DNA from: Ramazzottius varieornatus
Taxonomy: Eukaryota; Animalia; Tardigrada
Reading direction: 5' to 3'
DNA length: 64,000 bases
NCBI GenBank assembly: GCA_001949185.1
Contig: BDGG01000001.1
Coordinates: 6,485,591 to 6,549,590, forward strand
Part shown: positions 30,930 to 57,550 of the stretch, in pieces
How positions within the stretch are numbered: position 1 is the first letter of the stretch
Layout: each line of letters opens with the position of its first letter
Made by a program: the position numbers and the translations under genes
The notes under the pieces: model-generated
Seen by the model: the letters and a program-made list of their open reading frames with translations, nothing else
The model's database searches: none
Told to the model about the DNA's origin: nothing

Positions 30930-32404
30930 GCTGTGAGACCAGTACGCACGCAAAGTTAACCTCGCTGACACAGTTCGTCTTTTTGTACAGTAGGACGGTT
31001 TATTGTCAGAGTGTTGTCGGAGTGTTTTGTCGGAACATCTTTACTCGATGTCCTGCTATGATATTACTTCCTCATCTTCCCCAAAAAGCCTGCCTTAATG
31101 TATGATATCGTCTCAAGACTCACGATCACATCGGGATACCCCTTTTTTTCTCTTCACTTAGTTTCTCAAGGTACCGATTGATGATTTGCGACATTAATCA
31201 ACCCAATAAACACTTGCTCTCGTTTCATCAGTTTCCGCCCTTTCCTCCATTTCTGTATTTAGCTGAACTGAAGCTTCGCCTGAATGACGGTTGTCTCGGA
31301 TTAATAAAGTTGCTTCATCTCTTCCGAACTTGCCCGTAACAGAAGGATAGCGTAAAGTCCATTCAACGCGGTCATCCACAATCACTTCGTCATGCCTTGG
31401 GTCCACGCACGATATTTCACAGTCAAAGACGGTATGGGGGAGGGGGAGGGTGAGAATCCGGAAGCAAAATACACTGCACGAAGATAATGGCCCACGACGA
31501 TAGTGGCCCACGACGATAGTGTAAAGATCCCCCATGAAAACACACCGAAAGACCAGTTTCGATATCACCATTCAAACGGCGCTCGAACACATCCCCGTCA
31601 TAGCGGGATTATTCCAGAAGTGTATACGCCTGTACGAGCAACAGGACTGAACAACGAATCTGGCATGTGGATATTGTTGATGTACGTGTACACGTACGGC
31701 GGGTAGTTATGGGACACTAAAAATTACACCAATGACGGCAAATGTACATCCCAAACGAGAGCCAGAAATCAAAAATCGAGCGTGTGACGCGACGCAGGGA
31801 AATTTACCGTAGAAAATTGTCATGGACAGTGTCCATCAGCCGATCAGCTGCTGACTTCTACGCTTCGAGGCTACGGATGATTTGTTTTTTCTTCCGAAGA
31901 CGCTCTCGAATTGTCCTTTTTTCAATGTCGCAACCTTTCAAGAGCAATAAACCTCGACAGTAGACCGAAAAATCCTTGAGGGACGCGCTTTATGCTATTC
32001 AGCACGTACGCACAGCAAAGCAGCCTTCAGTGCTGGTTTTTACTTGTGGTAAGAATTACCTGCCCGTGCCGCTGTAGCGAAAAGGCCTGTACCATAATTT
32101 CTAGTGTCCCATAATTCCGTGCGTGTGCAAAGAGTGTCAGATAGACGTTTCCCGGATTCGTGAGAAGGAACAGAAGTATTGTCCACAACCTACACGAAAA
32201 AGTATCATCCCAAGTCGATTTTCTATTTTGGATGCTTGTGCTCGTGCTGTTTAACAATAACACTGATCTTCGGCCTGAACAGTTACTACGAAATTTGAAA
32301 GTGCTGGCGTACGATAGCCAACCGGACATGTCACAGTAAGAGAATTCGAACCGATGGGAGGCGGAACGAAGCAGGACGTGTGGGATAATTTGTGCACTCC
32401 GCAG

Positions 32405-33597
<1,193 letters not shown>

Positions 33598-34188
33598 CAG
33601 TATACGTGGCCAGATAGCGGGCAATTACCCCGCCCCATTTTGTACCCTATAACTAAATCGGGGAAGTTGTTGGAGGGTAATTAGTGCGCCTGTGCTGGAG
33701 TGAGAAGTCGATTTCTCAGATTGACTTAAACCTACCTGTTAGCTTGAGCTCTCTCCGTCTCTGTAGCTGGTGGACCGGGACGTTTCAGCGACCGAACATA
33801 AAATCATGGACGCAAATCAAGTTGCGTCCACTAAAATTTTTGCCATACCCGGGTTTTGACCGAGCTGTTACAGAGTTACTCGTTGGGTGCGGCAGTCGCT
33901 CAGTGTTTATAATCCAAGTTACTTGATCATTTCAGTCTCTTGTGTTTCGGTAAACGTTACAGACTTCTTTACGTGCCCGTGTCCAGGATGGTCAATTACT
34001 TGTTTGTGTACTGTATCGCTCTGGTATCTTTCAAAACTGCTTCGGCTTGTATTGAGGGATGCTTTTGCACGAAATCCGCCGGCTGTCATCGATTGTCTTG
34101 ATCGCGGTCTTCACCAGTTGAAGCTGGAAAACGCAACGTTTGATAAGCGAGTGTATCATATTCTGGCCGCTTACAATTATCTCTTATC

Positions 34189-35290
34189 TTGCACAAGTTG
34201 TTAAACAGAATCTACCATGACCCAAAATCTGTCGGTTCGTTCGGTGGTGTAAGATTGTTGTATCAGGAGTTGAGTAAGAGGAGCAAGTGTCCTGATTTGA
34301 AAAAAGAGTTAAAGCCTGGCTGAAAAAGAACCCTGTCTATACTCTGCATGCACCCGTTAGACGAAATTTTCCGAGAGTGCCTATTGTGGTTGATGGACCT
34401 GGAAATCAGTGGCAAATTGACCTGATCGATGTTAATTCAATCAAGGACCAGAATGATGGTAACGGGTTTATTTTGTCGGCAATTGATGCATTTTCGAGAA
34501 AAGCCTATCTTCAGCCGATCAGCAACAAGACAAAAGAGGCTGTTTTGGCCGGCTTTAGGCAGCTGTACGAGGCGTCAGGAGAGAATATTCAAGTATTGCA
34601 GAGTGATTAGGGTACGGAGTTTTACAACGACAGGTTCCAGCAATATATGCGTCAGAAAAATATTGAGCATTTCTCAACACTGGGCTCTGAGACCAAGGCA
34701 GCGATCGTCGAGCGCTTTCATCGAACAATTATGTAACGGCTGTATCGATACTTTTCATTAGTCGGTAACAAACGCTACGTTGAAGTCCTGCAAAGTTTCG
34801 TGGACCCGTACAATGAAACACCACACAAGACACTGGGCTTCGTTGCACCCAACAATGTGACCGAGAATAACAAGGAAGAGATAAGAAGGCTCTGTATGGA
34901 ACTCACAAAGTCATCTACGCATTTCGGCGTTTGTCCAAGGAGAGGTTTGTACCGGAGCAGTTGGTGCGTGTATCGCTGCAGAAGAAAAGTTTCGAAAAGG
35001 GATTTTTGCAAGGTTGGAGTTCGGAAGTGTATAGAGTTTTATCTGTGGAAAACACCGAGGACGGAGCAGTGCTTTGTTTATTGAAAGGTCTGAAGGAAGA
35101 CGCGGTGAAAGGCCGGTTTTATCCGTGGCAGCTTCAGTCAGTTAATTACACCGAAGACGAGCTCGTTCACGTCCAAGAACTCGACCGGAAAAGGGGAAAA
35201 GTACTGGTGCATTACGTTGGCTGGGATAAAAAATTCGACGAGTGGGTAACGACTAGAAAGTTTAACGGCATGATCAAGAATGTCGCTTAA
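34189..35290 (+). pseudogene. Polinton retroviral-like (rve) integrase with C-terminal chromo-like domain
   Basis: IYHDPKSVGSFGG..WLKKNPVYTLH..WQIDLID (D), AIDAFSR, QSD*GTEF (D), IVERFHRT (E), YNETPH, FEKGFLQGWS, VHYVGWDKKFDEWV; at least two stops and two frameshifts. Confidence 0.9.
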
Positions 35291-36009
35291 CAACTTTATC
35301 ATCACCTTGTCAAGCGATGCCAGCCGTGATTTTTTCCACAGTACCTCCACTGCCTTTACCACTCACTGCCTTTACCACCCACTTGGCGGAGGAACTGCGT
35401 ATCCCTGAATCTGAACTCTGGGAGATGAGTCTTGTCTCTATCCAATGCCCGGAACGCATTGCCACCTTCCCCGAAGATGGGAATGAGCGAAACGTGATGT
35501 TTCGAATGAAGGATGGCAAAAGGTACCAGAAAGTCACACCTCAAGGTTACTATCAGGACGTTGAGGCTCTGTGTAATGCACTGAATCTATTGCCACCAGC
35601 TGCGGCTCAAGTGTTCAAGTACAATGCACTCGACCGAACAGTATCACGGGCACCGAACGACACAGTAATAGCAGTCGAGCTCAGTCCGTATATGAAACGA
35701 TTGTTGGGTATTGAGCAGCCATTTGGCTTACGGGAAGCTTCTCTGACGACCCACACCGACACAGTCTATGTTTACTGTAATTTGATTCGATCTCAGCTGG
35801 TGGGAAATACAAAGGCACAAGTTCTCGCTGTGGTTTCCGCTGAGAGCGTGACCCGGGGCCGAATGTGCCAGGGAAGTGGATCATTCGTCCCGATCGCTGA
35901 CAACTCATTCGACAAAATTATTGTAGAACTGGCCGACAGTACTGGTCGGATCATTCCCTTCGCTGACGGCATTACAACTGTGCGACTAAGATTTCGCAAA
36001 AGAGCCTAA
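35280..36009 (+). pseudogene. Polinton minor capsid (penton-like) protein
   Basis: True start is probably ATG 35280 (MSLNNFIITLSSDAS...), with a frameshift near 35350; then WEMSLVSIQCP, VYVYCNLIRSQLVG, ELADSTGRIIPFADG..LRFR. Confidence 0.78.
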
Positions 36010-36011
36010 CG

Positions 36012-36542
36012 ATGGAAAGTAACTTTGAATCGTCTGCCATTCCTGCACATGTTTTCGTTCAGCTATTACAGTCAACCGGCGGCTCCATACCAAACTTCGT
36101 CGACATTGGCGCACAAGTAGGGCACGGATTCTTCGGAAATTTATTTGGCGCCGTTGCTCGAGGTGTCAAAAGTGCACTGATTCCAGCGCTATCTAACATA
36201 GGAAAATCAGTCATATGCGACGTGGTCGGTGGCCATGACTTTGCTACTAGCGCTATTCACCGCACGGGCACGGCCGTCATCAAAGGCCTGACGGGAATCG
36301 CGCGACAGACCGGATCAGGACGCAAGCGTCGAGCGAAGAAGGCGAAGCCAGTGGTCGTCGGCATCACCAAACCAAAACGCAAACGAAAGTCAGTCGCGAA
36401 AAAGGCAGTGTCGAAGAAGAAACCTCGCAAATCGAGCAAAAAGAAGGCCTCTCGCAAGAAAAAGACAAACAAGAAAGCCCGTGGAGTACCACTTGCGAAA
36501 CTCATTCAACATTCTTCCCGCAGCAACCCCTTTGCAGCCTAA
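36012..36542 (+). CDS. Polinton basic core/virion protein (QxGxG motifs, amphipathic helix, Lys-rich tail)
   Basis: Intact 176-aa ORF between the capsid genes; QVGHG-FFGNLFGAVARG, QTGSG-RKRR, then a K/R-rich tail. Confidence 0.7.
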   Translation: MESNFESSAIPAHVFVQLLQSTGGSIPNFVDIGAQVGHGFFGNLFGAVARGVKSALIPALSNIGKSVICDVVGGHDFATSAIHRTGTAVIKGLTGIARQTGSGRKRRAKKAKPVVVGITKPKRKRKSVAKKAVSKKKPRKSSKKKASRKKKTNKKARGVPLAKLIQHSSRSNPFAA

Positions 36543-36544
36543 TC

Positions 36545-37872
36545 ATGGCCAAAGTACATCCTGTCTCAGCGGACTGTGTTAACACTGCTGTCGAGTACTG
36601 GAATAGCGTACCCCCTACACAGTCATATATGGATACGGGAAAATGGATATATGTAAATCCAGTGGGTAATCGTCTCAACATGGAATCCATCAGTTTTGAA
36701 GTTACGGGCAGCCCTGACGAATTTGTTGACCTATATAATTCCTACCTTCTGTGGGACTTTAAAGTTCGAAAGGCCGATGGTCTCTTTATAGTTCCCGACA
36801 CCGTTACCTACGGGCCTATCAACATGATTGCCAGTACCATGTGGCAAACAGAGGACTTTTATTTGATCGGGGAGCGGGTAACTGGGGTGTCGCAGCTGGC
36901 TAACTTTGCTAATTACGCCGAGGCGTTGTTGGGCTACGGACCATCCTCTAAAGAGCAGTTGGAGCTACAAGGCTTTCACCTTGACACTGCCGGCAGTCAT
37001 GATACTACCGTGACCACTCCGACGAATGCGGCCATGACCAACTCCGGACTGCGAAATCGGTATAACCGACTGAAAGGGGACCAAACGTGGAAGTTATGCT
37101 CTAGGTTCCCTAGTGAACTAGCCAAACAGCCTCTGCTTATTCCAAACCGAATGGATATCAAGCTCATTCTGCATCGTGCCAATGCGGCATCATACATGAT
37201 GAGTGAGGAGGAAGCACTGGGACTGAAGCTAATCATAACGTCGGCGCAATTAAAGATACGAAAAATGAAGATGGATCCAGAATTTTTGGTTGCCCATGAA
37301 ATGTTGCTGGCCAAGCGAAACGCTTTAATCTTTTTCGAAGAAAAGAATGTGCTAGAGCTGACGATCAACGCCGGAGTCATGAGTTTTGCCAGAGATGATT
37401 TGTTTAGAGGCATTATCCCTAAAAAAGTAATTTTGGCCCTTGTGGACAGCGCCGCTATTGCGGGGCATTACAAGAAAAACCCGCTAAAGGTGGAGTCGGC
37501 CAACCTCAGTCAGGTCGGCTTTATCGTTAACAGCGAAAACTTGCCCTCGCGCCCTCTCCAATTCACGCCCGGAAACGGATTTGAACGGGATGGATACCTC
37601 TCTCTGCTAGAAACCACTGGCCTAATGTTTCAAAATTCGAGCCTGCTCTTTGATCCTGATTTGCTTTGATGGCATTCTCCTTTGAACCCGATCTGGGTCA
37701 TTCGTCCTGTCTGAGTCGACGCCGAACTGGTGTTTTGGGACTTGATTTGCGTTTTCCAGCAGCCTTGCCCAGCACCACGACGCTCATTTGTATTTACTAT
37801 AGAGACAGCATTCTGGAGATTTACCAACGCCGAAACCTGTTCTTGCCCTATAAACGTGTGTGGGAATCATGA
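36545..37872 (+). pseudogene. Polinton major capsid protein (double jelly-roll)
   Basis: VPPTQ..., ISFEVTGSPDEFVDLYNSYL, LLIPNRMDIKLIL, DDLFRGIIPKKVILALVDSAA.GHYKKNP; frameshift/deletion near 37660, then a typical C-terminus (FEPDLG..LDLRF..ILEI). Confidence 0.85.
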
Positions 37873-38444
37873 ACACGTTCGAGTTGTGGGATGCTCTACA
37901 TCATGATCCGCACGGGAAGGATAAGACTGCTGGCGTCTTCCCACGGGATTACCTTGCCAAAATACGCAAACGTCGGTACCCATTTGGTGTCATCATTAAT
38001 ACGTCTAAAGCCAGTGACCGAGACGGCGGTACGCACTGGGTGGCGGTATGGATCGAAAGCGGAAAAGATGCAGAGTTCTTCGACTCATTTGGAAAGACAG
38101 CCATCTTTTACGGCGTTGAGATCCACGACTTTATAACGAGAATGGCACCGCAATTCGTAGGAAAGTACAAAGAAAACTACACTCAATTACAACACCCATC
38201 TTCGGATCTTTGTGGTCTGTTTTCTCTCTATTACCTTTACCACAAATACCGTGGTTATGCCCTACGTCGCATTATATTTAGTTTCACGTATCCAAAAAAT
38301 CTGAAGAGTAACGATGCTTTATTGAGGAAGTTTGCTATTAAGAATCTTCACTTTTGCAACAATGCTAGAAAATGTGTCGATGCAGATGCGCTCAGACTAC
38401 CCGAGATGCACTCTTTGAAAATGTGTAAGATACTAAACAGCTAA
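37869..38444 (+). CDS. Adenain-like (C5) cysteine protease, intact
   Basis: GVFPRD, IINTS, GTHWVA (His), FFDSFG (Asp), LQHPSSDLCG (Gln, Cys); AATAAA overlapping the stop. Confidence 0.9.
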   Translation: MNTFELWDALHHDPHGKDKTAGVFPRDYLAKIRKRRYPFGVIINTSKASDRDGGTHWVAVWIESGKDAEFFDSFGKTAIFYGVEIHDFITRMAPQFVGKYKENYTQLQHPSSDLCGLFSLYYLYHKYRGYALRRIIFSFTYPKNLKSNDALLRKFAIKNLHFCNNARKCVDADALRLPEMHSLKMCKILNS

Positions 38445-38530
38445 TAAAACGACCATCTAACACCGCTACCGTTTTGGTTCGAAATAGGATTAGCCAAGTC
38501 TAATGAGGTGTCTTGCGAAGCGCTCCCGAT

Positions 38531-39139
38531 TCATGGCTGATTCTGTGCAGTGCTGGTCGAAGGTTTCTCACCATAGAGGTCTTTATCCTGCTGCAAAGTG
38601 GCGTACATCGAGCGTCTGTCCTTGTTGGGTATCATGGTAGCAGGCATAAAGTTGCGGGCGAGCAGGTTCATAAACGATTCCAACTGCTGGGGGCGGTAAG
38701 AGTGGTTGATAGGGTTTGTAACCCAGTGGATGAAATCGGCCAAGTTGGCTCCGGTCAGCACGGTTCCGTCGACGACTGGCTCCACTGCGTCGGTAATGTC
38801 CATGCCGATCTCTCGTAGGAAACGAATAAACTTTTCGGCGTGTGATTTCTGAGATTTTCCTACTGTACCAATAACCGTTTCCGCTCGACGGTTCAAGTTA
38901 CTTATGCTAGGTTGCACAGGCAGATTGTTATGTGCAGTGTGCGTCAACTTGCCGGGCATCCGCGTGCACCCGTCCGCGTTATCCATTCACTCGTGAACAT
39001 CCGCCAGCGCAAAGATTTTATTGCGGCTGTTTAAGTCGGTATCTCTGAGTATGTCATCGAAAGGGATACTTGCGCGCCCTCTCGCAACATCAAGGTTCCG
39101 TAACCGCTCCTCGCTTATCAAGTACATTCGACGAGCCAT
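38531..39139 (-). pseudogene. Conserved Polinton hypothetical protein
   Basis: MARRMYLIS... from ATG 39139 with one internal stop before 38986; C-terminal GTVLTGANLADFI..PQQLESFMNLL..NFMP..IPN pattern like other Polinton accessory ORFs. Confidence 0.55.
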
Positions 39140-39140
39140 G

Positions 39141-39470
39141 CTATAAGAGAGATAAGAAAAACTGCAAGGCAGGCGGAAGACAAATCTCCAAGACTCGCAG
39201 ACCCTTTCCTAACAGCAGCTCGCGCTTTTCCTTTCTTGAGTAGCTTTTCTCAGCCAGCTGCTGCAGAATAGGCTGCAACTCTTCCAGCTTGCGACGTGCG
39301 CTTTCGTGCTCAATCTTTACTGTCCCATTTACGATCTGTAGACAGCACTCCGAGATGGCGTCCACGAGCGTGTCATCGGCGTTCTTTAGCAGAGCTTTGG
39401 AAACATTGGCGTCGCCGCGCGACAGTACAGTGAGAAAATCTAAGCTTCTAGCGGTGGCTGTGTCTTCCAT
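39141..39470 (-). CDS. Conserved small Polinton protein
   Basis: 109 aa with LLKNADDTLVDAISECCLQIVNG; abuts both neighbours with 1-nt gaps. Confidence 0.6.
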   Translation of the reverse strand: MEDTATARSLDFLTVLSRGDANVSKALLKNADDTLVDAISECCLQIVNGTVKIEHESARRKLEELQPILQQLAEKSYSRKEKRELLLGKGLRVLEICLPPALQFFLSLL

Positions 39471-39471
39471 T

Positions 39472-40167
39472 TTAGTTGATGGCTTTGAAGACTACAGTAG
39501 ACTTGTAAGGGTTTTCGCCAAAGATATCGGTCATAAGGCGCTCGTCGTCTGCGATGTTGGGGTGTATGAGATATCCGTTGATAATGAGATATCCGTTGTC
39601 CTTGGCCATGCAGTAGTCCACTGCCTCTTCAAAATATTTAGGTCGGCGAGGGAAGAGCTGGTGCCCAAGATGAAGCAGAGGCTCAGAGTCGGAGGCTCCA
39701 CGGAACACAATAATGTACTTGGCATTCAGCCTAATCTCCCTCGCCACTCTACTTTTCCAAAAATGTTATGAATCAGATAAAATATCGATAAGTTTCGATG
39801 ACTGCTTCCATGAATAAACAATGCTGCAGCAAGCTCGTTAACACCCTTATGGAGCATCAGATCGTCAATAACGAGCACGTTGATTTTGTCCGTACTGAAA
39901 AACTCAGATCAGCCTATTGCAACGGGGATACCCTCAAGAAACTCGATTGGTAGTGCGGCATTTGTCAGCGCATCATAAATTGCTTGCCATTGCGCGTATA
40001 ACCAAACAATACGCGTAGGAGTAGACTTTATCGCGTAGCAGAAGTCGTTGCATGAAGGTGGTCTTACCACTGCCGCTCATCCCTGACAATAGTTCTGTTG
40101 CTGGATGTGAAATAGTGCCGTTTAATTGTTTCCATTCCGGTGGTTTTGTTTCCGTAGAAGTTGTCAA
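39472..40167 (-). pseudogene. A32/FtsK-like genome packaging ATPase
   Basis: Walker A GMSGSGKT, Walker B LVIDDLM, HGSSHRNLS, REIRLNAKYIIVF; stops and frameshifts. Confidence 0.88.
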
Positions 40168-43100
40168 GGTTTCGCGAACATCGCCACTTGTAAAACATCG
40201 CCACGAACATCAGATTTGCCAAATGCTTTACTGCGGCGTAAAGTTTCTAGCTCAACACAATCGTCGACCAGTGCGGAAACGAGAAAATGCTCGGGTGTTC
40301 CTTCGACAGGGAATGGAATATCCTTGTAGCCAAAAGGGTACGTCACGAAGCCCACCCCATCACTCGTCCTTTCACTGTGCAGCGTACCGACCTGTATAAC
40401 AAACAACACGGAGTTAGTCGACAACAAAGTTTTGGAGATGGAATTTCCAAGCTTCTGAAAGAGGACAAAGATAAACCATACCGTTTCATTGGCTTGGTAC
40501 GAACTTTTATATTCTTCATATCCCGGATGAAGGCTGCTGGATTTTCAGTGTCGACAGAAAACCAATCGGTGCCATCCAGCATGCCTTTGATGGTGTCGTA
40601 ATTTAGGAGGGTCTTGTTGTAGGGATTGGGTGTTATCCCTTTAGCTTTGAGCTGGGTCTCCCCATCATCCATCACCTTGATGTACGTTTTCCTGCCGAGA
40701 GCGGCAAACTTTAGGCAGCGTTTACCCTTGTTTTCGCTCGACAGCTGACCCAGGTACTCGCCGCGTGGCAGTGGGGACTCGTCGGCTTCCCGAACGTAGA
40801 GGGCAGAATCCGTATCGCAGTACATTAGCTTCCCAGGCTGGATTTCCCACAAGCACTCCCTCAGTAATTTGAGTCTAGCCATCTCCGTGGTACGGATTCC
40901 GATATAGATGTTTGTCTTGACGTTCTGTCGAGCAACTTCTTTCGATTCTTGGTAGATCACTTCCGCGACCTGGTTGGTGACGAACAGAACGCTTTCCGGC
41001 TGGTAGTTGTTGCCAACCATCAGTTCCAAGCAGCGGCTGTATCTTTGGCAATACTCGGCCTGGTCGTAGTCGTCGCGCATGACGAACCTAGAAAGCAGAG
41101 ATGAAGAGCATACTGGTCCAACAAATTATTTATCAGAAGTGCGTTGCTAGAAAATTTCAGTAGTGCACTGATGGTACTTCGCTAAAATAAATGGCCGACA
41201 ATAAGGGGCCGTTTTCAGGGCGGCTGACATGAGATGTATTTTAAATGTCATAGTATCTCATTACCTTCCCCACAGAAGATTTATGGCAATCTTGGCACAG
41301 AACCGCTTGCCCGGATTCTCCTCCACCTCGTGGGGCGAAATGGTAATGTCCAGAAAGTCGTGCCATCTATTGCAATAGCGCTGTTTGTCCGCCTGGGTCT
41401 CCACGCCAGCCGGAAATCCGCTGGCCACAATCTTGTCCTTTGCAAAAGTGCGAACCGCTCCGTCAAAAAGTCCTCGCTGACCTGTAAGACAATAGTACTG
41501 TTAAAACTGGATGGTAGGGCGAGCACTTCTATTCTGGATATGCATCATGCGAATAAAAGCAGTAACAGAATTCTTAAAGCTGCTGAAACTGGATAGTCAA
41601 TGCAAAGCGAGTGTCTACAGTAGCTGTGAAAAGTTTGACAATGAGATTACCTGTTTGGCGGTTGAATTGAATCGTCTTCTCGAAATGATGAAGTTCGTAA
41701 ACCGTGACGATCGTGTAGCGTGCGTCCTTCACTGCCACTTGAACCTCTTCGCAGCCCCACATCCCTGTGAGAGCTCGCTCGTCGTCATTGTGCGAACATG
41801 GTGTGTTCAGGTTCCTGACGAGAACACACGTGCGACACAAAGTGTAGACGATGGAGTTGGACGGCAAACGGTACGGCAGTGGTGGAACGTAACAGTTCTG
41901 ACTTGGAAGTATGATGCAGTGTACCACGCCGAACCAGTTTTCAACTGGAGGAAAATTGCAGTAGAATACCTTTGGGTGGCCATGCCCATAAGCACCTTCC
42001 AGGTTGACGCTCGGGTACAGCGACTGGTAATCGTCATGCTCCATCGTGTCTCCGCTGTCCAGACTCACTTCTTTCTTCAAGTAAAAGACTTCCACTCTTC
42101 CACCGAACAGAGCTGTGCGTGGATCAGCGCGAGGGACGAACGCAATGTTCCGTAGAACTTCCTCGCTTCCATTCACACTCCCACATGACGACGTATCGCT
42201 TGACAGAAGGATGAGTTCCAGTTACGTAAAAAATCTAATCCAGCGATTGAATTATCTTTGGTTACCTGTATATCCACCGCATGTGCCGCAGCATACCAAG
42301 CCAAATATTCCAGCCTCACTTTGGAATGAAAACCGCGTCCTCCATATCCTTCAAGTGGAACGATGCCGATTGTGTTCTCTGGAAGAAACTTGGCTTGCAA
42401 AGCTGTGATGGCTGCCGACGCCATAGTGGGGAACTCGAAACAGTCGAGCTCGTCACACTTTTCGGCAAAGTTTCTGCGAAAGATGTTAAGGCACCTGGCA
42501 AGCACACGTGTATCTTGTTGGCAGTACTTTATGATTTCTGTCCGGGAATGCCACACCACGTTGCTCTGCACCTGTTCTTCGTACCAGGCGTCAAACGCCT
42601 TCTTTTCATTATCGTGAAGCTGGCTATAACCGAAATAATGCCGCTCGGGAATCCTGCCCGAGTACTCTTGATTTTCCAGAGTGTTAAAGAGGTGGGGGAA
42701 GTATCCTTCTCGCTCCTCCTGTGGGAGTTTGAAGTCATCCCCCAGGAGTTTTAGGGCACGAGGCAGAAAGCTGAAGGAGTCGATGAAGCGCACTCCGATG
42801 CCTCGAATCGAGAGCATGATGAGGGACGAACCGTTCTGCATTTTGTCACAGAAATGATTTTGGCTTTCCAAAGCCTGGACAATGTATAGTGAGTCGTACC
42901 TATAAGAGATCATATTGTAAAATTAATTTACAACTTGTTACAATGTAGTCTCTTACCGACTGGCATTGTGCGCCAAAAGGTGCAGTTGGTGCAGTTCTCA
43001 AAGACCCAGTCAAGAAACTGCATGTGGCACTCTACTCCATAGAAGGTCTCCGTGATAGTAGGGTCCTCGTGACAGATGAAGTCGAGGCAGTTGGGACTGT

Positions 43101-43648
43101 GCATTCCGGTAGCAAGATCGAGCATACATTCAAAATCGTAAGCAAACGTTCGTTGATCGTGACGTCCTTGAAAGAAGAAAAAACCATAACGAAATTAAAC
43201 GGGATGGAATCAAATTGACACAGACCAGCAGGAAGGTTTTAGAAATTTATTAGGACATCTACCGAGCAGGCATTTTTTACCTCGCTTTCTAGCTGCTGGT
43301 GGTTGAGCCTGGCCATCTGGTAAGAAGTCTTCAGCTTCGAAAACCTAATCTTCCACTCCGTGCTCTTCTCCTACGGCATGGCTCTTCTTGCTTGTTGCCA
43401 CCAAGGTTCTTTTCGGAATGGCAGCACTGCCGGTCTCCATATAGCACTGATGACCATGAGATACGAACTGCTTGCACACCGAGCAATATTGAGCATCGCA
43501 GTCGTATGGGTCGGATCTTGGACGTCCGGGAGCTCTGAAAAACTGTAGCAATCTGCACATCGCTCGTAAGCATGGCAAATTGATTTGGCTTCCTTCTTTG
43601 CGCCGCATCGAACGATGCACCTGAGGTGGTTTTGGAAGCAGTCTTCAG

Positions 43649-46509
43649 CAGGGATGAGCAGTTTTGGAGCGGCGTAGCGTTTTGGTGGTCGCTATTCGCT
43701 TCGCTTTTTAGCGAAACTATAGCGGACGGAGCTCTGGCCAAAACTGGACGTAACGAAGCGGAATCCGTAGAAAACTACGAAAGCGGAAAAACGACCAAAG
43801 CGGAGCGGAAAGCCGAATTCAGCTATGGTAAATGTAAAAAGTCACAGTTTTTTCAGAGTTGAATGAGTGATTATCGTTCCAAATGCATATAGTTCTTAAA
43901 GGACAACCACCCATGTAAACCTTCGAGTGAGAGATGACTAAGCGATTGCAAAATCAAGCACACCATACGGCACAAGTTGTCGCAAGAGGGCGACTAATCT
44001 CTTAACTTTAGTTGTCTAACGCATCTTCTGATGAAATCTTGACTTTCGCTCTTCCATGAAAACTTGTACCATCGGCTGTGCGAAGTGTACAAGAGGTTTG
44101 GTTGATTTTCGAGAGAACTGCTGAAGGATGGCCGCTACGGAGATTGTCATCGACGAAGATGACGATGTGGAAGCGTCGGAAGCATCGAGTGGAGACCGCG
44201 ACCGGAAGGCGACAGAATTCTACTCCACCTTTTTCTCGTCGTTAGCTACCGCCAGAGAATCGAAGAATAGCAAGAGCTACGTAGTTCATTCCGGAACTGT
44301 CGTCTGTGCCCGAAGGAAAAGAAGATTGAGAAGAAGATATCATCCCGGGACGGCTGCAGTAACTTCAAAAGCCATGTGTTGACTTTCCACAACAAAAACC
44401 AGGTAATGATCCCCTCTCCGGAACTTTAACAGCCATCATATTTACCCGGATAGATGGGATTGAATTCCCGTAAGCTTGTTTTCGATTTTTACGCTTCGAC
44501 CTGCGCAGTACGTCAATATCAAAGCTGCGCTAGTCAGACTGTTGGACAAAGCGGACGCAGTGGCGATTAACATCGACATTTGGAGCAGTAAACGTCAGCG
44601 TGGGTACCTCGGCATCAGTGTCCATTTCATCGACGAGAAGTTCCGCTTGCGCAATTTCCTTCTCGCCTGTCCTCGCTTCAAAGGCGCACACACAGCTGAC
44701 GCGATACTCAACTTGACAGTGGAGGTGATTGCGGATTACGGTCTGCAAAGTAAGATCTTCTACGTGGGTACGGACAATGGAAGCAATATCATTTGCGCAT
44801 CCAAAGACTGGTTTCCGCAGTTCTATGAATTCAACAGCCCTGCCGATAGCTCAGGTACCGCCATGTAAACTTCCCTACAGTTTAGTCACTTGTCTGACTG
44901 GAAAAGTATCTTGCATTTACTCGTGGTTTGTTGCAGATGATGACTCGCTTCAACAAGAAAGCCATCAGGAAGATATTCAAGAACTCGAAGAAGCGGCTGC
45001 CGATAACGAAGAGTTCGATCCCGTCGATCCTGAGGAACTCGACGTGGACAACAACTTGGCTAATGAAGTAGCAGAACTTCTCCTCCGAAAATATTGTTTA
45101 CTTCCCGAAAGAAAAATTCTGGTGCGATACTTTTTCCGAGCTTCACGAAACTTTTTAAATATTTCTGCTCGGTTGGGTTACCATTTGTATCATTTGGTTT
45201 TCTTGTAGGTTCGATGTGTGGCACATTCACTTCAGCTAGTGGTCAAAAAGCCCGTGAAAAAGTGTGCAGTGGTCAACAAAGCGGTAGAAGCGCTGGCGTC
45301 AGTTGTTTCGAGCATTCGGCATTCCGTGAGCATGACAGAAGCTGTGAAGAAAGAGTTCGAAGGAGCCTTGAAAGCGCGTTGTGCCACTCGCTGGAACAGC
45401 AACTTCATCATGGCCGAGCACGCGTTGCAGATGGACTGGGACAAAGTGGGTCTTGAGAAGAAGTACCGTCTTTCTCCTGATTACGAAATCATTTTCAAAC
45501 AGTTCGTTACAATAACTGCGCCATTTCAAACGGCCTTTCTGAAATTACAACGTGATAGCATACCGGCCATCTGTCAGGTCTTGCTTATTTTGTACGGTCT
45601 TCGGGTGCATTTGCACAGTTTAGTGGCTGCTGGAGAGTACCCGTTGCTAGAAGCCTTCACTTTGGAGCTACTTGGACTTCTCGAAGAACGGTTTGACAAA
45701 CTGGAGGAAGATGACTTGTACTTGGCGGCTACGTTTTTGCAGAGGATCAAAGAGAGCTGTCGAAACCGAAAAAAGAACCCGGGAGATCATTCTGCGTATG
45801 ATGCGAGAAGTGAAGTTAGCAGGACCTTGCGATACCACTCCTCTCGCAAGCAGTAGCAGAAGGTATGCTTTGATTTTCAAATATTAAAAAAATAGATAAA
45901 TATATCACTACGAGATAATACCGAAATTTGCGTATATTCACTAGGCTGGTTTGTTCTTTCAGTGCGTCGAAGAAAGCCGAAGGAGCATCGGAATTGTTCA
46001 GCTTTATGGAAGACGAAGTCCCTCTGACCAAGACCAAGCAGAGTCCAGCGATTACGGTTGAAGCAGAATACGAGCTCTATCTGAACAACGACTGGAGCGG
46101 CGAGAACCCTTTGAACTTCTACCGGATGAAAGGAACGCAAGATATTTTCAAGAGGATGTGTGTGATAGCTAAGCAAATTTTATGTGCGCCTGCGACTACC
46201 GCTGGTATCGAGCGAATTTTCAGTATTTCGGGGAGAATTCTTAATGAGATTAGACTTCGTACCAATGATCTGAATTTCGAGAGACTATTATTTTGTAATG
46301 TCAATCAAGACCTTCTTGATCTAATCGCGAACAGCAAGCCTGCTGCAAAATGTTTCCAGTAAAAATTAATATTTTCAAAAATATTTCTATAACGGTCCAT
46401 AGCGGAAAGCGACCTTCGAAAATTCACAGCGAAACTACAGCGGGAAGTAAGATCGAAGCAAAGCGGTACCGAAGCGAAATGTTCCAGTTCTCATAACTGC
46501 TCATCCCTG
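43649..46509 (+). mobile_element. hAT transposon nested in the pPolB gene (2861 bp)
   Basis: Perfect 15-bp TIR CAGGGATGAGCAGTT; 8-bp TSD GTCTTCAG at 43641-43648 and 46510-46517. Removing it restores the pPolB frame (TCKDCRKKVSAED|CFQNHL). Confidence 0.95.
44128..46362 (+). pseudogene. hAT transposase, spliced and decayed
   Basis: IDIWSS, GTDNGSN, RCVAHSLQL (CxxH), TRWNS and PATTAGIERIFS motifs spread over several exons and frames. Confidence 0.85.
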
Positions 46510-47825
46510 GTCTTCAGCAGAAACCTTTTTCCGACAGTCTTTGCAGGTGATTGTGCACGGCTGAGGGTTTTGTCTGGACGAACACTCAAATTGGTGGCAT
46601 CTAGTGCAGGCTCTGGCGCACGCATGCTGGGCTGGGTTGTTGACGAACTCGAAGCACACTGCAATACACCGGTATAAAACTCGTAAATGTAGGGCTGTTA
46701 AACTATTTCGAATTTATGGATGTAACGCAGGCCGCTCTAATTTTCATGGACGCAAATCAGGTTGCGTCCACTAAAATTTTCATGGTACCCAGGGTCTGAC
46801 CGAGCGTAAAGATCATGGACGCAAATCAAGTTGCATCCACCAAAATTTACACGGTACCCAGGTTTGACCAAACATTGCAATATTGAATAATGCATTAAGG
46901 GTAGTTTTCAATTTGCTGGAAACGTTAGTTTACGTACCTCCACATCGAGCATCCTTGCCGACAATACGGTGCGGCTTTGTAACCGCATCAAAGTGCCCAG
47001 CCTCGTACAAGATTGCTGCTAGCTTGGGGAAGTGCGGACTGTCATTCATTGGAGCTCTCTTGGCGTTAGCATTAAACGCCAGCAGCTGGATCCCACGTTT
47101 GGCTAGTAGTTTCTGGAAGAGCTCGCTCTGTGGAAGACCACACGGACCAAAGGGAACACCCGCATCGAGATGAAGCGGTCTGGCGCGCTCGCATTGTAAC
47201 TTCATTCTCGAGTCCCGAACTGCGTGGTATTCTGCCGGCGTGTCCTCCATCTTCGAAAGGCTCACGACTATCGAACGAGCGCAACACAGATTATTGTCTG
47301 GATCCCACGTGCTAGGTTGGATGGACACGATCGCATGCGACAGGCTCTTTCGCTCTGCTGATCTGAACTGCTGCGGAGCATTTACCCGAGAAGCCGACCC
47401 TGAACCTTCCGGGTTCCTGAACAAGGTCAAGTTCACAACCATTTCTCCATCAAACATCCAAAACTTTCTCCACTTCGGAGGAGGCTTTCGATAAAGTTTA
47501 ACAGTCCCCGTGCGCTGAACTGCCGTCCGTAGATTAAAGGCATTGATACGGATGAGTTCAGCATTTGAGGATGTTTGAACACAAGTCGCAAACGATCATT
47601 GACGCAGATTTGGAATTTCGTAATCATGTCGTTCAAGAACTGAGCAAAAACTTGCTCCAGAACAAAATCGTAGTCGGCGAGGCTTACAATTTATATTATT
47701 ATATTATAGTCGGAGACCAAAGCGAGCTTCACTCGTATTAAATTACTCATAATGGTTAATAGTAAAAGGCTGAATAACTCGATAATAAGAATGGCGAGTA
47801 AGAGCAAAAACAAATGGACGCGCCA

Positions 47826-48600
47826 TTACTTCTTCGTCCTCTTGGCCGTAATCTTGACTTCCGCTGTCTCGCTGTCGAATCCGTTCTTGCGCTTCGGTTC
47901 AACTGTGCGCATGAGTCGCGGACCAGACAACTCAAACTCGTCCACCAACCTGAAGACAAGAAGTTACAAGTTAGCTCACAGTACGTTGGTAAAAGAAATT
48001 GGAGCGCGTAGCTAATATCGAAATGGAATGGAGTCACACTCACTTCTTATCCCCTATGGCATTAGCATTGGCGGTAGTGGCGAAGGCTGCGGCTTGCTGG
48101 TATTGGGCCTGAAAGACATTGTATAGTTTGAACACGCCATTCTATATTATGGTTGAAACCCAAATTTTCACTGTCCAAAGACTTAAGCGTCTTACGGGCT
48201 GATGTTCTCGATTTTAAGCGGTTCTTTCTTGATTTCGATCAGCATATCGGTCTTCTTGTTCCGCTGGTCTTCCTCGCGACTGCAGAAAAGAAATCGAAAG
48301 CATTAACCGAATGGTAAAAATTTACCTAATTTCGATCTGAGGCGTACTTTTCTGTGTCCCAGTGATGGACCACTTCGGCGAAGTCGCGCCTTGAATCGAG
48401 CGGCATCGTAGTCGCTGAGCGTTGGAGACGGCGTCCGTGGTGTCGGGATTTTCAGCAAGTCCACCCAGTCCTGCTTCTGCGTGTTGTAGATTGGGGGAAG
48501 GATCGGCGGGGCCGGGAACCCCTGCCCATGCTGTTGAATGAACCCCTGGGTTTGGTTGTATGTTTGCACCACTTGACCTCCAACACATGGCGGTTCACGT
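47826..48600 (-). other. Spliced ORF of unknown function immediately upstream of pPolB
   Basis: Canonical GT-AG introns near 48280-48325, 48110-48194 and 47950-48043 (GTGAGT..CTAAC..TCAG). Last exon LVDEFELSG..KRTKK* ends in TAATG with the pPolB ATG. Frames are not fully consistent. Confidence 0.45.
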
Positions 48601-49656
48601 TTATCATTTCCCGGCTGTTGATTAAATGTCTGTTGTGTAGGCCGGTAATTGACCTGCTGCAGCTGCTGGGTAAAATTTCGCTGTTGTGGCTGATTGAACC
48701 CCTGCTGCTAATTGAAAAAGTCACGTTCCCGATTATCGGACTCATGATACAGTGGGGGAGGACGATTGACCATACGAGGCGCACTAAAGCCCGGCTGGAT
48801 GTCACTAAAAGGCTCACCGGCCTGCTGGTTTTGTTTACACGGATTTGGAAAAGCACAACGGATGGTTCGTCGGTAACGAGGAAGGAGAAATCTGGCAAAA
48901 TAAGATGCGAGGAGCTTGGAAAAATAAGCGGTAATAGAGCTTGCAGCGATCACGTAAGAAACCGTACACTTCGTTTACTTCGACAAGGCTGGAAATCCGA
49001 ACTTTGACTGAAACTTTCAAAGCAACGACAGACATGCCAGAAAATCAAACTGATATGAAACATTCCAGAGTTGGAGCTCTTTTATATGAATGCTTGACTC
49101 GGGAAGGTGGGTGTGATCGATTTCGAGTGTTGACTACTTGAAATGTTCCATCTTTGTTTTACTACGCTGTCGGGGTGGTGCTTTTATTCCATCCTTCTGC
49201 CGATCATATTCCAGCTCAGGTCATGAACCTGTTGATGAACTTGTTCTCACAGAAATTACGACCTGTCGACTCATTGTCATAACGCTCACGACAGGTGATT
49301 CGACACCGCCCATAGGTCATGAACCTGTTAATGATCTTGTTTGCACAGAAATCTCAGCCTGTCATCCCATCGGCACAAAGGCTCACAGCAACTGACCAGA
49401 CTTTTGTCACTTGTTATCACTCCACGGTAAATTATCCGGCAATTGACACGTTTCGTTTCACATGAATTCTCAGTGTTCACCGTTTCAACAAAAGAATGCT
49501 AAAAGTACATAAATTTCTCAAGTAAAATCCACATCAAACGTCAGAAGCATCTGTAAACAAAAGCGAAAGAGAAATCTGAAGGACTGTACAGATCTGTCTG
49601 GGAAAGAAGATACCAAAAACTTCTACAATACATGAGTAAACGTCCGGGTCAGCACA

Positions 49657-54004: not shown

Positions 54005-54543
54005 CAGAGGTTGCTGGAGACGTCACAAAACTAACATAAAAATGGGGAAGGTCAAGATCCAGCGCTTGACCCAAAGGTCAGTCCACAGTCCAGATTAGGC
54101 CACGTCTACCACTGCCGATTGGCCGAGCATGAAATGGTCTGAAATGGCGCACTCCTACGCCATGAAGTATCCCAAAAGTTTAGACAAGGTGTAATACACA
54201 GACAGACCCATGTAAGACGCACTGCACTGTTCGAAGCGATATCGAACAATTCTGGTTCCGCGTAAATGAAAGCCAACGCTCACATGCTTTGTTTGATCAA
54301 ACAAAGCCTCTGCTGATAAGCCTAGTCAGCCATCCCACGCTTTCTGCATGTTTCCCTCAGGCCGTTAAAGGAGGCTATTATATACGGCTAATTAGGTTTG
54401 AAAGATCATCCTTGCCGGCGAAAGTTCTTTAATTGAGTTCGTTTTTGCAGCATTTTGGCCTTATTTTGGACCCTAAACCAAACAGGTCAAGTTGGCGTTG
54501 ACCCATTTTTATGTTACTTTTGTGACCTCTCCCGCAACCTCTG
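54005..54543. mobile_element. hAT-type MITE (539 bp)
   Basis: 42-bp TIR CAGAGGTTGC.GGAGA.GTCACAAAA.TAACATAAAAATGGG with 3 mismatches; TSD ACCTCAAC/ATCTCAAC. Confidence 0.8.
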
Positions 54544-54656
54544 ATCTCAACGAGGTACCGAAGAATTAATTTTCGGAAACGGCTCCGAAAACTGCCAAAG
54601 TTGGTATACGAGAATCAGAGCCTTACTTTTCTAACGGGAATACTTTGCTAACTCAA

Positions 54657-57550
54657 ATGCTGCAGGCGGCGCGGCCATGTGTCTGATTCTGCTGAACATG
54701 TTCTACCGCCATATGGCGACCGACCAAGAGTTAGCAAAGTTTTCGCCGTTCCGATTTTCGATAGAAATGACGGCAGGTATCAACGTGCACCTACCACACA
54801 AGCAATTTATTTCTACTGTTGATGTCACATGCGATGCTCCCATTGTGGAAAGTTGCCAGTAAAAGGGAATTATTAATATTGCATCGACAGCCGGAAACTT
54901 TCTAGACTTTCTTAGCCTTCGACTTTACAGATGAAACCGCGAGTGTCTTTCTCGGTGCAAGCTTCGTCTTGGCTGTCGACTTGGAAGTGGAAACTGGAGG
55001 TCTCTTTCTCGGTGCAGATCCAGCCGTAACTGGTGCTTTGCTGCGCTTTGCACTGGTTTTCGAAGGGTTTCCTTCAGAGTGGCGCAGTGAAGAATCGTTG
55101 GCCGGCTGTGATGCAGTTACGTCAACTCCTAATTCTGAAGCAACCTGCTTAGCGGTCTTCCGCTGTCTCTTTGGAGGAACTGTACAAGGGTATCCTTGGC
55201 CTGGGGTCGGGCTTATCTCTTCGCTGTCTGTCGTGCTTTCCTCAACCGCCTCGATGTTTCGCTTCCTGTTTCTCAAACCGTTGGCTTTCTCCTTATTCTT
55301 CTCTATTGCGGCTTTCTTCGTAGCAATGTAGCTACTTTCAGTGAGGATTCTGCCGTTCGAAACATCCAAGCGGGAATCCTTTTCCCGACCTTTCCTCTGA
55401 GGAGCGCTCCGGAGGAGGTTCTTATGAAACTCTAACGCGACGACCGAGCCAACCGATTTTCCCGTCATGATCTTTCTGATTTCCAAAAAGCTGGTGGTTG
55501 TCTTATCCTCGGTCACGCCAATCTTTTCGCGAAGAATCTTTGCGATCTCCGCAAAATGCTGGTCACTTTCGACTTCAGTTTCTTCGACAATCTCCAAGTT
55601 GGGGTTCACTGTTCCTCTTAGCAGCTCAGCATCGAATGGGAAAAGTCCAGTTTTCTGACACCCTCGTGCCAAAGGTTCACCTGAAACGAGAAACATTCAG
55701 AAGGGCAACCTTCACACGATTATATCCGCAAACTTCGAAATAAAATCGACAAAATCGTTCTTCCAACTGGCACACGCTACCTAAATTGAACGAGTACGGC
55801 GGAAAGTCGGGTTTCCAAAGTTTGACGATGTGGGCTGGGAAATTGTGGCGCGAAACCTGAATTTTTAAAAACACAACAGCATGAGTTCTCAGCAGACTTG
55901 ACATTGCGCAAGACGATTAACTTAAAGTTCGTTCATTCTCCATCTTTACGTATATCAATTGACGTATCCACCCGGAATCACGGAGATACCTGTGCCATTC
56001 CTGCTTCACTCCTCCGAACACTTCCTTATCTAGCGGCTGAAGGAATGCTGTCTGACCAGAAGGGAGAACGACTACTCGAATTTCTTTTTCATGTTCCAGA
56101 CAAGCCATCAGAAATGCGACGCAGTTACGGTGGGAGGAATGGCCGTCGTAAAATAACACATTCTGAAAAACAAGGAGAGGTTAGAAGGTTAACCTTCGGT
56201 CACTTCACGCCGAACGAGAACACTGCGAGATGCCTAATCCATGAAACTCATACAAGTATTACCTTGGGGCAAGTGATGGATGGCAGAAACTCCTTCTCAA
56301 AACATTCTGTCAGCACCTCATGATCCATCACTCCGGAGGAGTTCGTGCCTACATAGCAGGCGTCGTGCGTGTCCCGGAAGTGTGATTCAAGGTGCATCTT
56401 TCCTCTGTAGAGAATTAACGGTCGGAGCATCTTTCCAGCTGCATTTCCATAGTCACGAGAGAGATGTTTTCCCGATCGCTTTCCGTTCCTTTCACATATC
56501 CTACCGCCTTCTTACGCCTTTTTCCGCGTAGACTCTGTCGTACAGCTCTGCCAACCGAAATCCCGATTCGTCCAAGTTCCATATCTCGTCAGGATTATCG
56601 ATAAAACCGTCATCCTTCAGCAACTGCAGAAGGGAAATCCATTCTTCCCAACGCGCAGCCGTCCATTCCCTTGATTTCTTAAAGCTCAGCGTACTCAGCA
56701 TTCTTAGCGAGATTTCACGGTTTCTTCGAAGGAAATTCCGGTGCCATCGATTGGTGAACTTTGCTCCATTCATGCCTAGAAACAGAATATAGGCCAAAAC
56801 AAGGCTTTGGCGGTGGTTTAACCAGAAGTCAACTTTCAGCTTTCGCATTTGGCCGCTGTTTTCCTGAATGTTATCTTTCGTACGAGCGAAAATCAACAAA
56901 ATCAGGCTTACCTTTGACGAGCGCTACTGCCTTGACGATTTTGATCAGCGTTCGTTTGCCTAGCGGAACTCCAATCTTCGAACAGCGGATGAGGATTTCG
57001 CATATTTCCGTCTCTTCCTCCAGCGAAAACGTGTTCGGACGTCCGGCCTTCTTTGGATGTCTCCTCTTGGCTGTGTTATAAAGGGTTCTTTGAGACACAT
57101 CGTACTTCTCGGCAGCCATCCTAGTGGACAGTCCATCGTTGACAGCGGTCAGAGCAGCTTCCATATTAGGATAATATTGCACGTATTGTCTCTTCCGCGG
57201 TTGAGCCTTCATCTCGAGCTGTGGAGGAACGGAAGGGCAGATTTCGGAAGTTGCAGAGCTTGTTGAAGGTATGCTCCCAGACATGGTGAATAAACGAGGT
57301 AAACCTTAGAGGGTGGAAGATAACAAAGAAGGATAATCTTCGTGGTAGCAAGCAGTGCTCACGTAGATCTGTCAGGACAATACGTTTTCACTCGGAAGTT
57401 AGCAAAGTTTTCGCCGTTCTGACTTTGAATAGAAACCAGCCGTAGAGTCTTAAGCACGCTGTGTAACCCCCGCGTGATTTCTGCTTCTTGCGTCATATAT
57501 GTGGCTAACTGGATCAGCTGATTCTGAGCTGCATTACGCCTTCTGCAGCA
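54657..57550 (-). mobile_element. pogo/Tigger-like DNA transposon with a spliced, decayed transposase (54902-57284)
   Basis: Psq-HTH MEAALTAVNDGLSTRMAAEKYDVSQRTL, CENP-B HTH WHRNFLRRN, DDE_1 motifs IWNLDESGF, FYDGHSSH, LQPLD; imperfect ~60-bp inverted ends; subterminal direct repeat GTTAGCAAAGTTTTCGCCGTTC at ~54730 and ~57398. Confidence 0.8.

Follow-up and report, generated by a model that had tools for sequence, protein, structure and literature searches.

We asked whether the replicase gene of a Polinton/Maverick (adintovirus) element in the tardigrade Ramazzottius varieornatus is interrupted by genuine spliceosomal introns, and whether its lineage carried them while it was still replicating. 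The element covers at least positions 34190-48700 of a 64,000-nucleotide (nt) stretch of contig BDGG01000001.1 (assembly GCA_001949185.1, forward-strand positions 6,485,591 to 6,549,590), hereafter the window, whose numbering is used throughout; its protein-primed family B DNA polymerase gene (pPolB) lies on the minus strand at 40164-47826. An initial annotation made from the sequence alone had listed six firm introns and a tentative seventh in pPolB, and none in the integrase, capsid, protease and ATPase genes. Our analysis showed that the pPolB introns are real U2-type spliceosomal introns, spliced in close copies of the element, and the lineage very probably replicated with a pPolB mRNA spliced by the host major spliceosome, its ancestors already carrying introns.

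The GT start and AG end were confirmed for all six firm segments, which measure 57-279 bp and, like the whole gene, read on the minus strand: intron 1 (46659-46937, 279 nt, phase 1), intron 2 (43167-43280, 114 nt, phase 1), intron 3 (42900-42956, 57 nt, phase 2), intron 5 (41482-41650, 169 nt, phase 1), intron 6 (41088-41264, 177 nt, phase 2) and intron 7 (40392-40481, 90 nt, phase 2). Their reported placement in or beside catalytic motifs was also borne out, with intron 1 splitting a CxxC of the Cys-rich region, intron 2 directly preceding Exo I, intron 3 lying within Exo II and intron 6 in motif B. All seven listed segments had GT..AG ends with a GTA donor, and their G+C content was 25-41% compared to 50-54% in the exons; a scan for low-G+C troughs was non-discriminating, with 14 troughs in the structural module too. 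A branch-point-like word occurred 23-49 nt before the AG in 6/6 firm introns, each of which combined GT..AG ends, a pyrimidine tract and a branch site as is typical of the U2 type, whereas the seventh segment had no true acceptor. When the junctions were aligned to 16 reference polymerases with the split codon written as X, the flanks of introns 1, 3, 5, 6 and 7 matched several intron-free references without a gap in the homologous region (for example, residues 218-253 of P0025 and 319-342, 787-822, 859-894 and 1061-1089 of P0290). For intron 2, located in a poorly conserved linker, the ungapped match was weak (P0290, score 45). If a fixed-length deletion is allowed to slide by ±6 nt, it would meet GT..AG by chance at ~5% of junctions, and at five of them with a probability of ~3e-7. 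The proposal that intron removal joins the coding frame exactly held locally; the gene as a whole is broken by a hAT transposon, frameshifts and stops.

Splicing was examined in contigs from 8 of the 24 listed sequencing runs: one DNA run (X1), six RNA-type runs (X12-X17) and one run of unknown type (X4). Introns 2 and 5 were skipped exactly, the former as a CT..AC joint in contigs of X12 and X13 and the latter in X13 and X16. Intron 7 was skipped in X12, where five adjoining letters equal the exon end, and intron 3 in X16, where the adjoining letters fit the exon end. The RNA junctions implied by the annotated coordinates were thus seen for four of the six firm introns, in three of the six RNA-type runs. 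The DNA run contained none of these joints and read through 40267-41144 and 41219-43004 with 0 differences; no joint was found in X4, and none within pPolB in X17. As a control, the transposase introns of the hAT element were likewise joined in RNA-type runs and not in X1, and this parallel behavior supports X12-X17 being RNA. An origin of the segments as random insertions or assembly artefacts is hardly credible: the seventh segment, discussed below, is indeed partly a deletion artefact, but the exact joints in RNA-type contigs and their absence from DNA contradict this explanation for four introns, and both the ~5% chance per junction and the boundaries shared by diverged relatives argue against it.

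The relatives were read as translated open reading frame (ORF) fragments. A search for shorter proteins, whose query covered neither intron 1 nor intron 2, returned 17 matches, of which 14 (besides P0284, P0286 and P0281) were 67-87% identical; P0016, P0225, P0241 and four cluster members were examined in addition. Among relatives 62-87% identical, the fragments stopped or started at five of the window boundaries. All five fragments reaching the intron-7 donor (P0272, P0127, P0273, P0274 and P0279; 79-87% identical, and 80-88% identical among themselves) stopped or lost homology there. Eight fragments from five lineages (P0016, P0275, P0276, P0282, P0283, P0285, P0287 and P0288; 63-79%) ended at the intron-6 donor, with a stop or Tyr as the next residue, as GT donors predict, and P0273 and P0293 entered at its acceptor. 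P0241 began at the intron-3 acceptor. RvY_19165 (P0279), which ends at the intron-7 donor, belongs to a second family of the same species; the two families are 73-80% identical and share boundaries. Other boundaries were variable. Intron 5 was present as a break in P0145, P0282 and P0283, whereas P0016/P0276, P0275/P0287/P0288 and P0225 read through it, and the intron-4 donor was found in P0241 and P0277 and was absent from P0287 and P0016. P0016, P0280/P0292/P0293 and P0225 broke at positions that no intron interrupts in the window copy (near Exo III, ahead of the C-terminal KAKG motif and ahead of motif B), which suggests lineage-specific introns. The fragments not ending at a window boundary were P0278, on a 730-nt contig, the distant P0284 and P0286, P0225 and P0280/P0292/P0293. 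In a tree of 55 rows, from which P0012 was excluded as too short, the window protein and five fragments formed a clade (support 100/98) that was joined first by P0225 (100/99) and then by two Paramacrobiotus proteins (100/99). Gain or loss of intron 5 was left undecided by the tree, as a grouping of both carriers was not rejected (approximately unbiased test, p-AU 0.09) and the larger, 55-row tree separated them with mixed support.

These shared boundaries carry the conclusion that the introns are older than the dead copy. The initial annotation had reasoned that a dead copy cannot gain precise introns; this argument is not valid by itself, because integrated polinton-like elements of dinoflagellates acquire introns from introners, mostly after integration, according to the available text of two reports (10.1101/2025.03.18.643946; PMC12166617). 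Its claim that the introns are spliceosomal and older than the dead copy nevertheless stood, given that splicing at these sites occurs in close copies and that relatives as distant as 62% identity break at matching positions. The boundaries persist over 15-38% protein divergence and in two families, with frames and motifs kept between them, which argues that replicating ancestors carried introns; introns that are shared, gained and lost among relatives were probably likewise carried by replicating elements. We consider it very unlikely that the introns instead arose post-integration in a single old insertion, or in a domesticated polymerase locus, and then spread by vertical inheritance and duplication with no mobile carrier. 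The dinoflagellate precedent fits such a history, as do the damage in every copy seen in DNA or RNA and a clade that follows its tardigrade hosts. Against it, two families sharing boundaries coexist in one species, relatives retain long open frames with intact motifs (P0287 has 525 residues on a 19-kb contig), X1 shows several copies, and the window copy, which has virion genes around it, shows decay rather than conservation. A single recent introner burst was ruled out, as the eight introns compared showed no mutual similarity (best E 0.29). Within the window, intron 1 was the only intron with a repeat elsewhere: two tandem copies of a ~62-nt repeat with a hairpin lie inside it (46744-46874), and one more copy lies close to the element's left edge (33804-33865).

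Several observations weigh against replication with a spliced pPolB mRNA. The run types are guesses ("RNA?") rather than recorded RNA. Introns 1 and 6, as well as the seventh segment, showed no joint in RNA-type contigs, the uncovered parts being uninformative; intron 1 was read unspliced by an X15 contig (46751-47001) and intron 6 by an X17 contig (40968-41156). The spliced contigs differ by ~3-6% from the window copy and carry indels, indicating that their source is other copies or alleles, which are probably damaged as well; they are evidence of splicing but not of a functional replicase. None of the copies observed was intact and full-length, and no terminal inverted repeats of the Polinton were found between the flanks of this copy, which is decayed and has undefined ends. 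Finally, the relatives were available as protein only, so that their GT/AG ends follow from ORF ends and their hosts from the tree.

The tentative seventh segment (42199-42265) did not hold up as a complete intron. Within it, from 42213 on, the sequence again aligns to P0287, P0016 and P0145, and the window copy lacks a counterpart of residues ~185-256 of P0287 (~72 codons of a VSR-like insert, a label given by motif resemblance and not by a profile match). The donor is genuine: at that codon P0241 and P0277 cease to align, and their next residue is Val, the one that GT predicts. On these alignments the segment reads as an intron stump fused to an exon by deletion, and its putative acceptor as coding sequence; a complete intron was rejected, the acceptor lying in coding sequence past the ~72-codon deletion. 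The 5′ remnant of this intron 4, with a phase-0 donor, occupies 42214-42265, its inner border being approximate.

An intron absent from the initial list was found directly upstream of pPolB. A Gln/Pro-rich ORF (47826-48707, minus strand), which X1 read depth near 48400 places within the repeated element, contains a GT-AG intron at 47950-48043 that was skipped exactly in an X14 contig, and this contig continues from the upstream ORF into the 5′ region of pPolB, to 47665. Two more GT-AG candidates lie near 48280-48325 and 48109-48195. The last exon of the ORF (47826-47949) ends in a TAA (47828-47826) that overlaps the probable ATG of pPolB (47826-47824) as TAATG. The host RNA polymerase II would transcribe the element in the nucleus as a spliced leftward unit that comprises the upstream ORF and, via the TAATG overlap, pPolB. 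Since copying would go directly from DNA to DNA, without reverse transcription, nothing would purge the introns, as the neighboring intron-bearing hAT illustrates. Intron gain and loss would have taken place at G|G-type sites while the tardigrade-associated clade spread, the introns in motif B, at the C-terminal site and probably in Exo II forming a shared core and the others variable extras. Under this scheme the replicase would depend on host nuclear splicing, and the virion genes would not.

The distribution of introns over the core genes is uneven, with 6-7 in the ~3.8 kb of pPolB and 0 found across ~5.7 kb in the remaining core ORFs (p 0.004-0.002 if introns were placed uniformly, a value that is indicative only, as introns are not independent draws). 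The earlier report of no introns in the other core genes held for the capsid, protease and ATPase, in which no intron-sized insert was seen, and was less secure for the integrase, whose 5′ end has no ATG. This absence of introns rests mostly on ORF continuity, the capsid and protease having no homologue gap comparison. The integrase frame start (34180-34200, plus strand) is preceded by a pyrimidine tract and AG, which may reflect a spliced leader, or else decay. We favor explaining the skew by tolerance of introns, possibly with some benefit to expression, in a long gene that would be read first from chromatin.

A regulatory role, such as the early/late split or the silencing escape suggested by the initial annotation, is hypothetical. 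An adaptive explanation, which we judge somewhat unlikely, would have splicing license or gate the replicase: the introns would shield the longest transcript from a host silencing aimed at long RNA without introns, or restrict the polymerase to a tissue or stage, and the virion genes would be read later from amplified free DNA. Splicing-based restriction to a tissue or stage is known from the P element. The skew toward pPolB and the co-occurrence of spliced and unspliced contigs are in line with such gating, although the unspliced contigs are of low depth and may derive from pre-mRNA or DNA. It also draws on a published account, in the portion available, in which long coding sequences without introns trigger HUSH and splicing can circumvent both HUSH and PIWI-interacting RNA (piRNA) silencing (PMC11599104). 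On the other side, the Mavericks of vertebrates and nematodes function without introns in their core genes, introns 4 and 5 are missing from some relatives, and the ATPase shares the polymerase strand and is intron-free. A fuller version appears unlikely to us, namely an active tardigrade lineage in which the replicase and an upstream regulator are licensed by splicing, the virion genes are intron-free, splicing gates the switch between the integrated and replicating states, and intron gain and loss are ongoing. If it were true, such elements would be overlooked by ORF-based virus screens across many animals.

Compared with known systems, the element resembles vertebrate and nematode Mavericks in its pPolB, rve integrase, putative ATPase, adenain protease and capsid genes, in its two facing modules and in its integration in animal DNA. 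It differs from them in the 6-7 introns of its core polymerase, as no introns were seen in intact vertebrate Mavericks (PMC8097293) and the core genes of nematode Mavericks are intronless, with introns in cargo genes (10.1101/2022.07.12.499685), in the text available for both. Replication with a spliced polymerase, which is likely for this lineage, departs from the intronless core genes described for Mavericks. With Alpha-type adintoviruses (PMC8502044, main text) it shares a PF03175 polymerase, a chromodomain integrase and an extra ORF upstream of PolB; that main text contains no mention of "splic" and a single mention of "intron", for a group II maturase. The Alpha assignment is based on PF03175 and neighbors only, the nearest named pPolB relatives being insect, fish and cnidarian PolBs. 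The introner-bearing dinoflagellate elements, as far as the available text describes them, likewise hold spliceosomal introns inside Maverick/Polinton-like elements, in the form of repeated introner families gained mostly after integration in protist hosts. In the window element, by contrast, the introns are mutually unrelated, concentrated in pPolB, common to diverged animal-associated elements, and spliced. The hAT inside pPolB is no Polinton, yet it too is a DNA-to-DNA element whose key enzyme needs host splicing. The same need is familiar from the P element and the adenovirus E2B polymerase, DNA-to-DNA replicators that are not Polintons; the adenovirus polymerase has spliced leaders, not introns inside catalytic motifs.

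In the literature searched we found no report of a spliced animal pPolB; most subscription papers, supplements and Repbase/Dfam entries, which may annotate such introns, were outside that search. In the portions available, spliceosomal introns are unmentioned in 10.1101/2023.08.22.554363, group I introns are described in polinton-like viruses (PLVs) (PMC12220804), Maverick is listed among tardigrade repeats with no mention of "intron" (PMC11071193), and PMC12753696 adds nothing further on spliced Polinton polymerases. Intact animal Mavericks have been defined and counted by intronless ORFs, as the available text of PMC8097293 describes, a criterion under which a lineage whose polymerase is spliced would be overlooked or counted as dead. 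The presence or absence of introns 4 and 5 and of the extra sites provides a small gene family for polarizing intron gain and loss in a mobile element, and the replicase skew makes it testable whether splicing aids the expression of an integrated DNA virus from host chromatin.

The window copy is dead, with frameshifts and stops interrupting pPolB, integrase, capsid and ATPase. Exon 1 of pPolB (46938-47826), the N-terminal region recognized by tblastn to P0025, P0017 and P0032, is broken by stops and frameshifts. Exon 2 consists of a Cys-rich 5′ part (46510-46658) and a 3′ part with a frameshift and a stop (43281-43648), and exon 3 (42957-43166), containing Exo I, has a frameshift near its 3′ end; these were placed by sequence and tblastn. 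Exon 4 (42266-42899) encodes Exo II-III (Pfam DNA_pol_B_2, 8e-18) and was 100% identical to R. varieornatus RvY_02355 over 86% of its length. Exon 5 (41651-42213), defined by tblastn and homology, carries motif A and a frameshift near 42165; exon 6 (41265-41481), delimited by tblastn and the relatives' boundaries, runs up to motif B; exon 7 (40482-41087) holds motif C, YCDTDS; and the frameshifted last exon (40164-40391), matching P0017 residues 837-913, has an approximate end. The hAT DNA transposon (43649-46509, plus strand; 2.86 kb) separates the two parts of exon 2 and is delimited by 13-bp terminal inverted repeats and an 8-bp target duplication, with its own spliced transposase (Dimer_Tnp_hAT, 1.5e-9). 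Its empty site was seen in X1 DNA, X12 and X15. It is multi-copy and transcribed, and the transposase introns joined in RNA-type contigs, not DNA, lie at 44855-44936, 45122-45208 and 45863-45962. The DNA run revealed a hAT-free sibling of the element and a sibling with internal deletions, which skip 40293-41115 and 41248-42896; the same joints occurred in X15.

The remaining genes identify the element as a Polinton. The polymerase belongs to the protein-primed B family by its DNA_pol_B_2 match and 151 homologues at E<=1e-10. On the plus strand, a broken retroviral-type (rve) integrase with a C-terminal chromodomain (34190-35290) gave Pfam rve 1.5e-5 on a fragment, under the curated cut-off, Tudor-knot 1.4e-5, and tblastn matches of 1e-16 to 1e-19 to ORFs of metagenome loci L007, L010 and L043. 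It is followed by a probable minor capsid protein (PZ/penton, an inferred name) and by a basic core-like ORF, which are both unbroken single frames (35280-36542; Atlas unnamed Preplasmiviricota-rich clusters, 0.98), and by the major capsid protein (MCP; 36545-37850), a single ORF of 374 residues with a frameshifted C-terminal piece. The latter matched MCP/double-jelly-roll (DJR)-like Atlas clusters at 0.97 on sequence features rather than a computed fold, and had no match in Pfam or PDB sequence searches; PDB sequence searches with P0287, the capsid and PZ returned nothing. A single-ORF adenain-like cysteine protease (37871-38444) scored over the cut-off (Peptidase_C5, 7e-6). Besides the upstream ORF and pPolB, the minus strand carries a putative packaging ATPase and two small ORFs. 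The ATPase (39472-40140) is frameshifted, and its identification draws on its translation, a match from L028 and one P-loop fragment with Pox_A32 at E 0.0055, below the cut-off and one of 22 weakly matching NTPase families; its two further fragments had no match. A small conserved Polinton ORF (39141-39470), which we take to be PW-like, gave a tblastn match from L043 (2e-6). Neither query found a relative among viral contigs. Among metagenome contigs, 46 loci were found, all distant (25-42% identity) and none in the intron-bearing clade, and their ORFs matched only the integrase, the ATPase and one small ORF. Other transposon remains at 54005-57435 include a pair of 42-nt inverted repeats (54005-54543) as well as an HTH_psq ORF (56871-57305), presumably pogo/Tigger-like. 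A host tyrosine-kinase gene (31194-33455, minus strand; Pfam PK_Tyr_Ser-Thr, 1e-21) adjoins the left edge of the element.

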